From Alphaproteobacteria bacterium (GTDB lineage Bacteria; Pseudomonadota; Alphaproteobacteria; SP197), in assembly GCA_964291415.2 (NCBI GenBank), contig OZ219920.1, positions 288,001 through 352,000 on the forward strand: DNA of 64,000 nucleotides. Reading direction: 5' to 3'. Of this stretch, positions 49,348-54,446 are shown piece by piece; positions within the stretch are counted from its first letter, which is position 1; each line of letters opens with the position of its first letter. Below the pieces are notes generated by a model that saw only the letters and a program-made list of their open reading frames with translations, made no database searches and was not told the origin of the DNA. The position numbers and the translations under genes are program-made.

Positions 49348-49878
49348 ATGGTCATGACACGCTGCAAGACCCTGAGTGCCGTCCTGGTCGTGTTCAGCCT
49401 CGCTGTGGGCGGTCACGCTGCGGCGGAGATGCAGACATCGGTCAACATCACTCCTCAGGGGGTGGCGATCGGCGGCTGGGACACCGTTGCCTACTTCACG
49501 GAGAATCGCGCCGTCATGGGATCGGCGGAATTCTCACACGACTGGCAGGGAGCCACCTGGCATTTTGCCTCGGCTGCCAACCGCGACCTCTTCGCGGGCG
49601 ATCCCGAAGCCTACGCCCCGCAGTTCGGCGGCTGGTGTGCCTATGCCCTGACGCAGGGCGAGTACGCGGCAGAGGTCGACCCCCAACAGGCCTGGACCGT
49701 TCACGAGAACCAGCTGTTCCTCAACTGGAATGCCAAGATTCGCAAGAAATGGGTCAACAATGGCATCGAGGACGGTGTGACCGTCGGCCGCGAGAACTGG
49801 GTTGAGGTCGAGCAGCAGATCCTCGACGGCGAAGCGGAGTATTCGCGCAAGGGGAATTCCCCGTGGAACGATTTGTAA
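49348..49878 (+). CDS. Exported YHS-domain protein (Cys form of YHS selenoprotein family)
   Basis: Signal peptide; AIGGWDTVAYF...W.FASAANRDLF..DPEAYAPQFGGWCAYA. Confidence 0.88.
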   Translation: MVMTRCKTLSAVLVVFSLAVGGHAAAEMQTSVNITPQGVAIGGWDTVAYFTENRAVMGSAEFSHDWQGATWHFASAANRDLFAGDPEAYAPQFGGWCAYALTQGEYAAEVDPQQAWTVHENQLFLNWNAKIRKKWVNNGIEDGVTVGRENWVEVEQQILDGEAEYSRKGNSPWNDL

Positions 49879-49888
49879 TCATCGCGCC

Positions 49889-50629
49889 ATGACGACGCCT
49901 CGCGTCCTCGTCTTCCAGCATATCGCCATCGAACATCCCGGCGTATTCCGGGACTTCCTTGCGGAGGACGGAATCCCCTGGACTGCCGTTGAGCTCGACG
50001 AGGGGGCGGCGATTCCGGACCTCTCGGACTTCGACGTGCTGTGGGTCATGGGTGGTCCCATGGACGTCTGGCAGGACGATCTCCACCCCTGGCTCGAACC
50101 CGAGAGGCAGGCCATTCGCGAGGCCGTTGTGTCGCGCAGGATGCCGTTCCTGGGCTTCTGCCTGGGTCATCAGCTCCTGGCCCAGGCGCTCGGCGGCGAG
50201 GTGGGACCGGCTGCCGAGCCGGAAATCGGCATCCTCGAGGTGGAGCTTGAACCGGCCGGCATCGCAAGTCCCCTCTTCGCGGGCCTCCCGGCGGTTCATC
50301 GCACCCTGCAGTGGCATGGCGCGGAAGTCCTCGACGTTCCGCCCGAAACGCAGGTGCTGGCGAAGTCCGGCGCCTGTGCAACGCAGTCGCTCGGGTACGG
50401 CGATCACGCCTTCAGTATCCAGTACCACATCGAGATCACGTCCGAGACGGTGAGCCAATGGGCCAGGGTGCCGGAATACAAGCGCGCCCTCGAGGACAAC
50501 CTCGGCTCCGGAGCCCTGCCCCGGCTCGAGACCGAGGCGGCGGCCGCGATGGCCGAGTTCAACGCGAGCGCCCGCATCGTCTACGACAACTTCATGGGCA
50601 TGGTCCGCAGCCGCCTGCAGGCTCCGTGA
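49889..50629 (+). CDS. Type 1 glutamine amidotransferase
   Basis: MGGPM, LGFCLGHQ, QWHG and QYHIE (Cys-His-Glu triad). Confidence 0.92.
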   Translation: MTTPRVLVFQHIAIEHPGVFRDFLAEDGIPWTAVELDEGAAIPDLSDFDVLWVMGGPMDVWQDDLHPWLEPERQAIREAVVSRRMPFLGFCLGHQLLAQALGGEVGPAAEPEIGILEVELEPAGIASPLFAGLPAVHRTLQWHGAEVLDVPPETQVLAKSGACATQSLGYGDHAFSIQYHIEITSETVSQWARVPEYKRALEDNLGSGALPRLETEAAAAMAEFNASARIVYDNFMGMVRSRLQAP

Positions 50630-50761: not shown

Positions 50762-51100
50762 TCAGAGCAATCCGGCCGGGATGGCGAAGGCATCTCGCGT
50801 AAGTCTGGTTCCGGTTTCCTTCAGGCAAACCACGGCTCCCGTTCCGAGTGGCCTGCCCAGCCTGGTCAGGGTCGAGAGGTTCCTCGCGGCGGCGAGTCCC
50901 GGGGATGCCGTCTTCTTGAACTCGAAGGGATGAATTCTGTTGTCGCGCTCGACCAGCAGATCCACTTCCCGGTTGTCCCGGTCCCGGTAGAAGCGAACAG
51001 CGGCGTGCAATCCGCCATGCCAGTAGCTCTTGAGAATCTCGGCGAACATCCAGGTCTCCAGGATGGCGCCGGACATCGCACCGGTCACCGCGTTGATCAC
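50762..51100 (-). pseudogene. C-terminal remnant of AAA_14/DUF4143 ATP-binding protein
   Basis: GAILETWMFAEILKSY...FYRDRDNREVDLL...PFEFKK; ATPase domain absent. Confidence 0.75.
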
Positions 51101-51245: not shown

Positions 51246-51959
51246 TCAGCCCGCAATGGTGCGCAGGCGGGCGATCTGGCTTTCCACCGAGATACCCTCC
51301 TGCGAGGTGATTTCCAGTTTCTTGTCCTGGAAGGTGTCTCCGGGATGAGCCTGCCTCCATTCCTCGACGACCCTGTCGCGTTCGCGCACCAGGTCCTTCA
51401 CCAGCGGTCGAAACAGGCGCAGCATGCCGGTGATCCAGCGGTTGACGGGCCAGGATGGCCGGGCGTGATCGATCACGAAGTCGTCGACCATCTCGCAGAC
51501 ATCGTCGGCCGCATACCAGGCTTCTCCCGTGACCCACCGATTGACGGTGAAGAGGCCTATGGCGAATCCCTTGGAATCCATCGAGATGGCGATGAGGTGA
51601 CTGAGCGCGTCGTTGCCCGTCGGCCACTCCGCTTCGCCGTCGTAGGCCACCGGAACGACGCCCGGCTTCATGCCCTTGGTGCGCATGAAGGTGTGAAAGT
51701 GGCCGTGTTCTCCAGGCCTCTGTGCCTTGGGATGGGCATGGTAGTAGTACTGGCTGTGGCTCGTGCGGTCGAAGACATCGCCCTTGGGATAGTGCCGCCA
51801 CTGGTAGAACGTGCCGGCGTCCCGCAGCAGTTCGCCAACGATGTTGTCATTGGTCCGGCGCAGGACGCGATGGCATTCGAGAACGTCGTTGCCTGCCGCG
51901 ATCATCGCCTCGAGTTCGTCATGCGGGAGATCTTCAAGGCGGGTCCGTTCTGTCGTCAT
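51246..51959 (-). CDS. His-rich conserved protein (DUF6969-like)
   Basis: W.HYP.GDVFD...QYYYHAH...EHGHFHTF...HLIAISMD..G...LFTVNRWVT.E. Confidence 0.7.
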   Translation of the reverse strand: MTTERTRLEDLPHDELEAMIAAGNDVLECHRVLRRTNDNIVGELLRDAGTFYQWRHYPKGDVFDRTSHSQYYYHAHPKAQRPGEHGHFHTFMRTKGMKPGVVPVAYDGEAEWPTGNDALSHLIAISMDSKGFAIGLFTVNRWVTGEAWYAADDVCEMVDDFVIDHARPSWPVNRWITGMLRLFRPLVKDLVRERDRVVEEWRQAHPGDTFQDKKLEITSQEGISVESQIARLRTIAG

Positions 51960-51993
51960 GGCGAGCCCTCTCGGGTGGATGTCCGGGCCATGG

Positions 51994-52887
51994 TCAGTCG
52001 TCTTCCAGGGCGAGTCTGAAGCCGATGAGGATGTGGCGGATGTCCTCGGGCCGGCCGTGCCGGTCAGCCGGGCGGCAGACACCGCAACCGCGATCATCCC
52101 AGGAACCACCCTTGACCCAGTATCGCCCGGGGCGCTGCTCATCGGCGGTCCACTCGAACACCTGTCCGGCGGCATCCAGCATGCCGAAGGGACTCGTCCC
52201 TTCCGGAAACGAGCCCACCGGCATCGTCGAGAAGGGGCCGCGGTCATGGGTGTTGAGTTTCGTGGCGTCCCACGCGTTGCCCCAGGGGAACATCCGGCCA
52301 TCCGTGCCGCGTGCGGCCTTCTCCCACTCGAGCGCCGTCGGCAGGCGCCACAGGCGCCCTGTTTCCCCGGACATCCAGCGGGCATAGGCCATCGCGTCGG
52401 CATGGCTCACGAGAACAACCGGATGGTCGAGCCTGTCGGCCGGTGGTACGCCATCAGTCCAGGCATAGGGCCGTGTGCGGCGGTAGGGATGGATCAGTCC
52501 ATAGCCGTCCCAGGTCTCATTGTCGACGTCGGGCGCGGCGTGGCCCGTGGCCTCGACAAACAGGGCGTAGTCGGCCTGGGTGACGAGGTTCTTCATGATG
52601 AAGAAGGTGCCAAGCTCGACGACGTGACGATCCATGTCATCGTCATACCAGCCCCATTGCCTGGTCCGCGAATGACCATAGGCTTCCTCGTCGAGACGAT
52701 AGGCCCATTCCCTCTCATCCGCGTCGGACCCGGCGATGAAGGATCCCCCGTCGATCCTGACGACCTCGGGGTGAGGCGTATCGTCTGCCGCGGATGAAGC
52801 GTACTGCGACAGAACAAGGAGAGTGACGCAGAGAAACGTGCGCAAGGGACCAGGAACCTTCCTGACAACACCCATAGTGGACCGCAT
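51994..52887 (-). CDS. Exported formylglycine-generating enzyme (SUMF1/FGE-sulfatase) family protein with CxxC
   Basis: Signal peptide; [50 protein letters not shown] and GFRL; start uncertain (52911/52887/52875). Confidence 0.88.
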
Positions 52888-53019
52888 ACCATGGGAGCGC
52901 CACAGCGTCATTTCCAGCTTACCATCCTGCCGGGATCAGGGTATCATGGTGGTTTACGTGCGGTGCGCTCCATGAGCGCACTCCCTTCAAGATCTCGAAA
53001 CCGGAGGGTCTCTAACTCC

Positions 53020-53931
53020 ATGGGCAAGCTGAGAAGGAAACTGTTGACGACCACCATGATTCCGGCGGTCGTTGGTCTCGGGAGCGTCATGGCATTCGAT
53101 GCGTCGGCCTGCATGTGCCAGCGCAAGGCGGCTGCCAAGGCCTACACCATGGCCCTCGAAAACCCGGAGGCCGTGGCAGATCCCGCAACGGGCCTGGCTG
53201 CCGGCTGTGATGCCTGCGGCGGCTGTGGAGCGGGCTGCGGCGCTTGCGGTGGCTGTGGTGCCTGTGGAGCGGGCTGTGGAGCCTGCGGCGGTTGCGGAGC
53301 CTGCGGAGCGGGCTGCGGGGCCTGCGGCGGTTGTGGAGCCTGCGGAGCGGGCTGCGGGGTCTGCAATCCCTGCGCGGCCGAGTGCGAGGAGGATCCGTGC
53401 AATCCGTGTGCGGTCTGCGAGGATCCGTGCGGCGCCAGCCTTGAGACGGCGACGGGCCTGGCTGCCGGCTGCGGAGCCTGCGGCGGCTGTGGTGCCTGTG
53501 GAGCGGGCTGCGGAGCTTGCGGCGGCTGTGGTGCCTGTGGAGCGGGCTGTGGAGCCTGCGGCGGTTGCGGAGCCTGCGGAGCGGGCTGCGGGGTCTGCAA
53601 TCCCTGCGCGGCCGAGTGCGAGGAGGATCCGTGCAATCCGTGTGCGGTCTGCGAGGATCCGTGTGGCGCCAGCCTTTGGCAGCCCGATGACGAAACCAGG
53701 GTTGCCTGGAGTGTCCTGACGGGCGAGCCGAGCGCTGCCTATGTTGCCGGACTGCTGCCCCAGGGTGATGTGCCGGCGATGCTTGACGGGAACGTGGAGC
53801 ATGTTGCCGGACTGGCCGACGAGGGCATCGGTGCGGTTGGCACGGGCGCCACAGGTTCTGGCTCACGGTTCGTTCCGGACGATGCGGCGTCCGACATCGG
53901 CTACTGGCGTTACACACTGCTGGTGTCCTGA
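53020..53931 (+). CDS. Secreted Cys/Gly-rich repeat protein (45 Cys), unknown function
   Basis: GGAGG RBS; signal-like N-terminus ending ASA; repeats vary mainly at third codon positions in this frame, indicating coding selection. Confidence 0.8.
53185..53676 (+). repeat. Nested coding repeats: 39-nt units (CGACGGCGACGAG) inside two larger modules (53185-53442 and 53449-53676)
   Basis: Each module reads ATGLAAG-(CGACGGCGACGAG)[31 protein letters not shown]. Confidence 0.95.
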
Positions 53932-53945
53932 TTACCGGGCGCTCC

Positions 53946-54446
53946 GTGCCTGGTGGTGACAGACTCCGTCGTCGCGGCCACGCCGCTGGATACCATGACA
54001 AGGGCCGGATCGGCATCGCTGCCGGCTCGGCCCTTGTCGTTCTTGTGCTCTTCATGGCGCTGGGCCGTGCCGGAGACGGGACGTTGGCAGCCGACAGCGC
54101 CTGGGCGCTGGCTGGCGGTGATTCCCTTCTCGTCATCGACGTGAGAACCGTCCGCGAATGGCGGACCACCGGTCTGCCGGAAAAGGCGGTGGGCATCAGC
54201 CTTGCCGGTCAAGGTGTTGCCTCCTTTGTCGACGCGGTGCTTGAAGCGGTTGACGGCGACCGCTCGCATCCCCTTGCGACGATATGCGCCTCCGGTGTGC
54301 GTTCGGCTCGGGCAGCCGATATCCTGCAGCGTCACGGGTTTGTGGACGTTTACGACATTGCCGAGGGCATGATGGGGAACGGGCACGGCCCAGGCTGGAT
54401 CGGACGCGGACTGCCGCTTCGTGCCATGGACGGCAGCGATTCATGA
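53946..54446 (+). CDS. Exported/membrane-anchored single-domain rhodanese
   Basis: Hydrophobic N-terminus, VIDVRTVREW..TG.P, ICASGVRS, EGM.G...GW...LP; start uncertain. Confidence 0.82.
   Translation: MPGGDRLRRRGHAAGYHDKGRIGIAAGSALVVLVLFMALGRAGDGTLAADSAWALAGGDSLLVIDVRTVREWRTTGLPEKAVGISLAGQGVASFVDAVLEAVDGDRSHPLATICASGVRSARAADILQRHGFVDVYDIAEGMMGNGHGPGWIGRGLPLRAMDGSDS

Follow-up and report, generated by a model that had tools for sequence, protein, structure and literature searches.

A 64,000-nucleotide stretch of an alphaproteobacterial genome (GenBank assembly GCA_964291415.2, contig OZ219920.1, positions 288,001 to 352,000; referred to here as the window) contains, at 51246-54446, four adjacent genes for a DUF6969 protein, a protein with the fold of the formylglycine-generating enzyme (FGE), a cysteine-repeat (Cys-repeat) protein and a rhodanese. 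The question raised by this locus is whether these genes belong to one system and, if they do, what that system does with so many cysteines. There is good support for placing the locus in a widespread and so far undescribed module centered on an exported poly-cysteine repeat protein. DUF6969 appears to be the constant part of the module, an FGE-fold protein with a CxxC pair a frequent part, and haem domains or a rhodanese optional parts. In the lineage of the window, the repeat protein seems to have lost its haem part and is followed by a rhodanese that is probably membrane-anchored or exported. We infer the chemistry of the module, which may be that of a sulfur carrier, a metal buffer or a modified protein. 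For the module together with the mechanism we favor, carriage of sulfur or redox equivalents on the repeat cysteines, we estimate a probability of roughly 40%.

The open reading frames (ORFs) and other features of the locus are as follows.

51246..51959, minus strand: DUF6969 gene, 237 aa; Pfam PF22308, E 7.2e-84
51994..52911, minus strand: FGE-fold gene, 305 aa; Pfam PF03781, E 2.4e-40; hydrophobic N-terminus; motif SWDDxGCGVCR
52912..53019, no strand: divergent intergenic region, 108 bp between the FGE-like and Cys-repeat genes
52919-52947, plus strand: sigma-70-like site, a consensus match only; 1 found against 0.3 expected from shuffles
53020..53931, plus strand: Cys-repeat protein gene, 303 aa; signal-peptide-like N-terminus, two repeat units and an 85-aa tail
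53233..53676, plus strand: tandem duplication within the Cys-repeat gene, period 234 bp, 1.9 copies, 93% matches (Tandem Repeats Finder)
53677..53928, plus strand: tail of the Cys-repeat protein, probably what is left of a cytochrome P460 domain after loss of the CxxCH haem motif
53946..54446, plus strand: single-domain rhodanese gene, 166 aa, GTG start; Pfam PF00581, E 5.9e-8

The four ORFs form two divergent pairs, one on each strand. The FGE-like gene lies upstream of the DUF6969 gene on the same strand, with 34 nt between its stop codon and the DUF6969 ATG, which is preceded by a ribosome-binding-like GAGAGGG. The rhodanese start is 14 nt past the stop codon of the Cys-repeat gene. Export was judged from N-terminal hydrophobic segments alone (best 15-residue Kyte-Doolittle mean), with no signal-peptide predictor; the values were 2.64 for the rhodanese, 1.81 for the Cys-repeat protein, 1.6 for the FGE-like protein and 0.66 for DUF6969, so that only DUF6969 was without a hydrophobic segment. 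The initial annotation of this locus, made from the sequence alone, agrees with these results in the place and divergent arrangement of the genes, the 34-nt gap, the identity of the YYHAH/EHGHFH protein as DUF6969, the FGE fold, the rhodanese with its CASGVRS loop, and the count of three probably exported products. In a six-frame scan of the 4.44-Mb assembly, the Cys-repeat gene was the sole Cys-repeat ORF; the filter passed one other short Cys-dense ORF, which has no repeat motif. Because 108 bp separate this sole ORF from the FGE-like gene, the arrangement appears to be more than chance.

Association of DUF6969 with Cys-repeat and FGE-like genes

We compared loci anchored on DUF6969, using a species-representative scan that listed at least 587 relatives and retaining 80 loci from named genomes. 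An FGE-like gene was present within 3 kb of DUF6969 in 49 of the 80 loci, and a Cys-repeat ORF within 5 kb in 40; two more loci with repeat genes (L039 and L090) were missed by the filter. Other neighbors within 3-5 kb were genes for P460 (16 loci), SoxA/TsdA (6), rhodanese (13) and DUF2336 (40) proteins. Among the 56 loci with enough flanking DNA, both an FGE-like and a repeat gene were found in 25, an FGE-like gene only in 8, a repeat gene only in 5, and neither in 18. The repeat gene was directly upstream of DUF6969, with no FGE-like gene, at L048, L058, L069, L078 and L099. Adjacent examples came from alpha-, beta- and gammaproteobacteria; in Thalassospira, the Asn-Pro-Cys (NPC) repeat gene is clustered with FGE-like, DUF6969 and DUF2336 genes. 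On a tree of DUF6969 the contexts were scattered, and adjacency to a Cys-repeat gene required 12 state changes; therefore the arrangement has been kept or rebuilt repeatedly.

An independent sample of 401 alphaproteobacterial genomes was searched for DUF6969, for the FGE-like subfamily (E 1e-40 or better, six candidates scored per genome) and for a DNA pattern of three closely spaced N-P-C codons, and the cross-counts were tabulated by hand. The pattern misses repeats of the CGxC type, so the repeat counts are lower bounds. DUF6969 was present in 91 genomes, including an unpublished one (G262) that is negative for both the repeat and the FGE-like gene. The pattern was found in 56 genomes, compared to 5 for a reversed-pattern control. 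All 43 genomes with two or more matches, which span 31 family codes, were DUF6969-positive. The 8 genomes that were pattern-positive and DUF6969-negative had one match each, and 3 of the five listed read as non-coding repeats. At this level of two or more matches, repeat proteins appear to be confined to genomes that encode DUF6969.

The FGE-like subfamily was detected in 33 genomes, 32 of which were DUF6969-positive. Because it was present in only 22 of the 43 repeat-bearing genomes, DUF6969, and not the FGE-like protein, is probably the constant partner of the repeat proteins. Where places were listed (22 DUF6969-positive genomes), the repeat was less than 3 kb from DUF6969 in 12 and at 5-8 kb in 3 more. 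Genomes with an FGE-DUF6969 pair and no adjacent repeat gene had NPC-repeat genes elsewhere in all five cases. In five genomes with DUF6969 alone, we found convincing repeat genes in two, only non-coding-looking matches in two, and none in one.

The initial annotation proposed a four-gene system and made it depend on co-localisation of the homologues, which both FGE-like and Cys-repeat genes show with DUF6969. The link between DUF6969 and the repeat protein holds; the rhodanese is not a general member, occurring in some lineages only, and the FGE-like protein is not constant.

Properties of the module proteins

The Cys-repeat protein has 45 Cys (14.9%), with 28 CxxC and 4 NPC motifs and acidic residues between the motifs. 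Its two 234-bp units, which are 93% alike, consist of CGxC runs with CNPC/EDPC motifs. No Pfam or NCBIfam family was matched. Orthologues within the genus are conserved in the signal peptide, in the stretch leading up to the repeats and in the tail, and the number of units ranges from one to four. Repeat-length variants of a relative were recovered from metagenome run X4 (window 53221-53547), with net losses of 315 and 60 nt and a net gain of 9 nt. All are multiples of three and thus in frame, and they represent polymorphism in natural populations. Because the orthologues retain the N-terminal region and tail and the indels are in frame, we take the Cys frame to be the coding frame and the other long frames over the repeats to be probable shadow ORFs. 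GC content at third codon positions was uninformative as a frame test inside the repeats, owing to their composition. Weak Pfam Cornifin matches in repeat regions were taken as compositional; a pentapeptide-repeat assignment was dropped, as the units differ in period (3, 5, 6 or 8 residues), and so was a lipobox assignment for the LAAC motif before the repeats, which is far from the signal peptide.

In relatives beyond the close kin of the window, the product of the gene that faces away from the FGE-like gene begins with a signal peptide, continues with tandem (C)NPCAA(K) or CGAC units and closes with a domain that ends in FC(x)(x)CH. This domain is cytochrome P460 (PF16694), with E 1.8e-10 at L023, 3e-10 at L117 and 2.3e-7 at L021, and weaker Pfam matches at L022 and L035; all five proteins have the domain together with CxxCH. 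More distant species of the window's own genus (L029 and L035) retain the full domain. In contrast, the 85-aa tail of the window protein, which ends in WRYTLLVS, has no Pfam match and no CxxCH. In BLASTP it showed weak, though collinear, similarity to the P460 domains at L021 (E 3e-4) and L035 (E 0.01); in each case the alignment covers the middle of the domain and stops just past WRY(T/S), so that the tail is probably a haem-less remnant of a P460 domain. To our knowledge, a long Cys-repeat N-terminal region is not part of the described P460 proteins.

Not all homologues have this form. A SoxA/TsdA-type cytochrome c domain (PF21342) is flanked by repeats at L078 (E 1.8e-11), L114 (E 1.2e-9) and L050 (E 5.7e-7); in the L078 sequence, a conserved Cys lies 39 residues past the His of CxxCH. 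Thalassospira has short stand-alone proteins of ~105-140 aa with only a signal peptide and repeats. Many homologues have units with one Cys each, (NPCAA)n; these lack CxxC and are rich in Lys instead of acidic residues. With the L117 protein as query, at least 1402 clusters reached E 1e-5 or better among 8000 candidates scored, and the only source names among the matches were 'cytochrome P460 family protein', 'hypothetical protein' and 'LysM repeat protein'. An extra LysM domain (PF01476) was seen in five repeat/P460 homologues (P0042, P0058, P0065, P0066 and P0070), suggesting that some of these proteins may be attached to peptidoglycan. CGAC(K)-type runs without NPC are fused to P460 beside FGE-DUF6969 pairs at L062:5580-6881 and L090:4114-5310.

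The DUF6969 match is full-length (280.8 bits compared to a cut-off of 27; profile positions 2-199 of 201). The protein has 12 His, and in an alignment of 41 sequences H55, H73, H75, E83, H86, H88 and H120 were invariant. Its AlphaFold 2 model had a predicted local distance difference test score of 95.2 and a predicted template modelling score of 0.92. We found no solved fold that matched this model by Foldseek (best E 0.23) or VIA-align (best Z 3.4 over 48,161 chains); a PDB profile search reached a best E of 0.31, and the ESM Atlas gave no usable match. The absent match does not prove that the predicted fold is new. At E 0.001 or better the family comprises 1241 representative clusters, and almost all members are stand-alone proteins 220-290 aa long. 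In rare fusions of ~630 aa (P0141 and P0188), DUF6969 comes first, then a long charged coiled coil, a single transmembrane segment and, last, a bacterial SH3 domain. Because DUF6969 has no hydrophobic N-terminus, and because the order of the fusions puts it on the cytoplasmic side of the membrane, it is probably cytoplasmic and thus could not be the periplasmic chaperone that was initially suggested. A complex prediction that paired DUF6969 (41-row alignment) with part of the Cys-repeat protein (residues 29-146) gave scores of 0.00 and 0.01 relative to a mark of 0.32, with no controls folded, and speaks neither for nor against an interaction. A DUF2336 gene lies directly after DUF6969 on the same strand (for example, L092:8527-10056) in 24 of the 26 loci that lack a repeat gene, compared to 12 of the 30 that have one; no DUF2336 was found in the window's genome.

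The FGE-like protein has the FGE-sulfatase fold, with PF03781 matched over profile positions 3-254 of 255 and a Foldseek probability of 1.00 to FGE structures (E ~3e-16, 27-28% identity to bacterial FGEs). It has a Cys pair in the C-terminal loop region before a conserved R-x-x-x-R/GFR segment, which may correspond to the Cys pair of FGEs. In FGEs the copper-binding catalytic Cys pair is spaced C-x4-C, and the substrate motif is C-x-P-x-R. In contrast, the window protein has C-x-x-C, in a GCGVC loop; in the alignment of the subfamily, which is well conserved, C276 was invariant and C279 was present in at least 90%. The closest solved relatives are ToxD of the toxoflavin pathway (7spq; 34% identity, Foldseek E 1e-20, PDB profile E 3.5e-39) and CalU17 of the calicheamicin pathway (6vqp; 30% identity). 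Both of these are cytoplasmic and act in small-molecule pathways, whereas the window protein appears exported, and ToxD has no GCGVC loop of its own in the aligned region. A query of the 70 C-terminal residues retrieved ToxD, SUMF2, PorK and PvdO, and not any FGE. A Pfam scan of nine ORFs around the locus (47-57 kb) found only YHS, glutamine amidotransferase (GATase), DUF4143, DUF6969, FGE, rhodanese, solute-binding protein and amidohydrolase families; no toxoflavin or enediyne genes were among them.

Possible functions of the module

We propose that the cysteines of the repeat protein are its working part. The precursor would be made in the cytoplasm, where DUF6969, as a metal-dependent protein, would modify it or keep it competent for export before it passes through Sec. 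In the periplasm, the FGE-fold protein would act on the repeat cysteines through its own Cys pair, by copper/O2-type or thiol-disulfide chemistry. The cysteines could then carry sulfane sulfur or thiosulfate-type species covalently or act as their redox buffer, with the rhodanese loading or unloading the cysteines and the fused haem domain of the relatives moving electrons. DUF6969 and the FGE-like protein may thus be maturases of the Cys-rich protein. We rank carriage of sulfur or redox equivalents first, and metal buffering and covalent modification next; these functions are not mutually exclusive. The SoxA/TsdA-type fusions and the recurrence of the rhodanese are our reasons for preferring sulfur handling to metal binding. 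A more specific version of the proposal seems rather unlikely as it stands: that DUF6969 is a metalloenzyme modifying the N-P-C cysteines before export, that the FGE-fold CxxC protein adds an O2-dependent step in the periplasm, and that the products, synthesised on ribosomes, exported and heavily modified, make up a new class of sulfur/electron carriers, many of them haem-fused, in hundreds of proteobacterial lineages.

Parts of this arrangement are found in known systems. Bufferins are Sec-exported Cys-containing peptides that are modified by a cytoplasmic MNIO iron enzyme and bind copper in the periplasm. The module may resemble them in having a Cys precursor with a Sec signal beside a cytoplasmic, metal-dependent partner and a product that ends in the periplasm; it differs in that the partner is DUF6969 and the substrate a long tandem repeat, often haem-fused. 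No MNIO (DUF692) or DUF2063 gene was among the nine ORFs, the part of the genome that was searched for DUF692. In Sox thiosulfate oxidation, the SoxAX haem enzyme works with a carrier cysteine of SoxY. The PF21342 domain embedded in some repeat proteins, the Cys-bearing flexible segments and the rhodanese are reminiscent of this system. However, the window protein has no haem domain, and most fused homologues carry P460, not SoxA; no SoxY, SoxZ, SoxB or SoxX was found by Pfam among the locus ORFs, to which the search for SoxYZ and SoxB was confined. Metallothioneins and copper storage proteins share the high Cys content and many CxxC motifs, in composition only. Unlike them, the repeat proteins are exported, have at least 303 aa in tandem N-P-C units, are often haem-fused and match no family.

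One alternative is that the genes are neighbors by coincidence: the FGE-like protein would mature the genome's sulfatases in the ordinary way and have no connection with the Cys-repeat and rhodanese genes. The initial annotation pointed out that no sulfatase is encoded in the window. This is correct for the window, since all six PF00884 matches of the genome lie outside it (C4:288001-352000), and it does not extend to the genome, where five of the six have a Cys-type motif (CCPSR, CAPAR twice, CGPSR and CSPSR). These five are at C1:632428-633933, C2:260764-262308, C4:170695-172254, C4:1534453-1536102 and C4:1559338-1560873. The genome has no radical-SAM sulfatase maturase that we could find, and the FGE-like gene is its only full-length FGE-family gene, as expected if it served these sulfatases. 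However, no signal peptide was seen in any of the five, whereas the FGE-like protein appears exported, so that it would not share a compartment with Cys-type (CxPxR) substrates. Nor does it co-occur with them consistently: among five near-complete genomes with the FGE-like subfamily, three (G409, G071 and G322) had no PF00884 match at E 1e-20. For these two reasons, plain sulfatase maturation seems unlikely, although it may be a side activity. The subfamily instead tracks DUF6969 and adjoins repeat genes across classes, and its Cys spacing, structure and sequence place it nearer ToxD and CalU17 than FGEs. Coincidence is thus very unlikely in our estimation.

Two other alternatives accept the module and assign it a different chemistry. 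The repeat protein could be a periplasmic metal sponge, a metallothionein-like buffer for Cu(I), Cd, Zn or Hg, with the Cys pair of the FGE-fold protein as a copper site or chaperone and DUF6969 as a cytoplasmic metal sensor or store. The density of Cys and CxxC with acidic residues between, the invariant His/Glu cluster of DUF6969, the binding of Cu, Ag or Cd by solved FGEs (from the titles of structure entries), a YHS-domain gene 1.4 kb away, and the presence of relatives of the locus in sponge-metagenome runs would all fit. However, the many homologues with Lys-rich single-Cys units lack CxxC, the YHS gene is syntenic with the module within the genus only, and no metal transporter or metal regulator recurs among the neighbors. 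Thiols are also unusual metal ligands in the oxidising periplasm, and the SoxA/TsdA fusions and the rhodanese would be left unexplained; we therefore regard a metal sponge as unlikely. Alternatively, DUF6969, before export, and the FGE-like protein, after it, could convert the repeat cysteines to formylglycine or to some other oxidised or cross-linked form, yielding a product like a ribosomally synthesised and post-translationally modified peptide. Cys oxidation is what the FGE fold is known for, and its nearest solved relatives here come from biosynthetic pathways. Strict one-way co-occurrence with a metal-cluster protein that has no solved-fold match, short tandem motifs in variable number, as expected of repeated enzyme recognition sites, and the stand-alone precursors of Thalassospira point in the same direction. 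In contrast, the constant motif is N-P-C, with Cys after Pro, and not the C-x-P-x-R of FGE substrates; neither a protease nor an exporter recurs among the neighbors; half of the repeat-bearing genomes have no FGE-like gene; and fusion to folded haem domains suggests a working protein more than a precursor. A modified end product therefore seems improbable to us as the main function.

Several observations weigh against sulfur or redox carriage by the module as we propose it. The FGE-like subfamily is absent from 21 of the 43 repeat-bearing genomes, and its gene is not beside DUF6969 in about a quarter of the FGE-positive genomes. L023 has Tyr in place of C279, and at L068:6987-7841, in an alphaproteobacterial metagenome-assembled genome, the FGE-like gene has two in-frame stops; the neighboring repeat/P460 gene is intact and very long, with a 577-aa frame and 62 N/S-P-C motifs. 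Nearly half of the DUF6969-positive genomes (43/91) have no NPC-pattern match, including DUF6969-positive Azospirillum lipoferum; A. soli has non-coding-looking matches only. A DUF2336 gene follows DUF6969 in 40 of the 80 loci. Because DUF6969 occurs without repeat genes and often precedes DUF2336, it may have a general role unrelated to the repeats. Rhodanese linkage is limited to two or three lineages (13/80 loci), P460 domains are known for nitrogen-oxide and not sulfur chemistry, and the haem-less window protein may work differently from its haem-fused relatives. The sampled genomes are related and not independent, and the counts, which would overstate significance, are given as counts and not probabilities. 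The proteins of the module are, as far as we can judge, linked to each other by genomics only, and not by experiment or structure.

The module links three sizeable uncharacterised families: DUF6969, the NPC-repeat/P460 proteins and a distinct exported branch of the FGE fold. In a literature search limited to titles and abstract openings, without supplements, we found no description of the module or of these families. If the reading is correct, it would provide a first function for DUF6969 and for 'cytochrome P460 family proteins' with long Cys-repeat extensions, and if the cysteines are carriers or are modified, a new way in which bacteria handle sulfur, electrons or metals outside the cytoplasm. 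Harmless, culturable carriers of the module exist (Thalassospira, Aestuariispira and Oceanibacterium), making the system directly testable.

Rhodanese, habitat, expression and flanking genes

The rhodanese domain match (PF00581) scored 33.5 bits compared to a cut-off of 22.2, with weak matches to NCBIfam rhodanese-type families. The active-site loop CASGVRS is consistent with a putative rhodanese activity. The gene stays beside the Cys-repeat gene within the genus.

Relatives of the locus were found mainly in runs labelled sponge metagenome (X3, X4 and others), and two of the runs contain DNA that is 90-97% identical to it. Contigs from an RNA-library run, representing a relative with 95-97% identity, covered all four genes of the module, in the case of the repeat gene its 3' part, and also the gene that follows the rhodanese; parts of 52871-53538 had no cover. 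These contigs are a weak hint of expression, and DNA can contaminate such libraries.

The flanking genes, by Pfam and NCBIfam, encode a YHS-type protein, a glutamine amidotransferase, a DUF4143 fragment, a solute-binding protein and an amidohydrolase, and they are syntenic with the module within the genus only. The YHS-domain protein (49348-49878, plus strand) is exported and matches NCBIfam NF041384, 'YHS domain-containing (seleno)protein', with E 1.6e-38. The GATase ORF (49802-50629), as listed, overlaps the end of the YHS gene. Between the amidotransferase and DUF6969 lies an ORF of 112 aa (50762-51100, minus strand) that aligns with DUF4143 over its final third alone (profile positions 104-159 of 160) and looks like a gene remnant. 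A split copy of this ORF is present in the relative L032.

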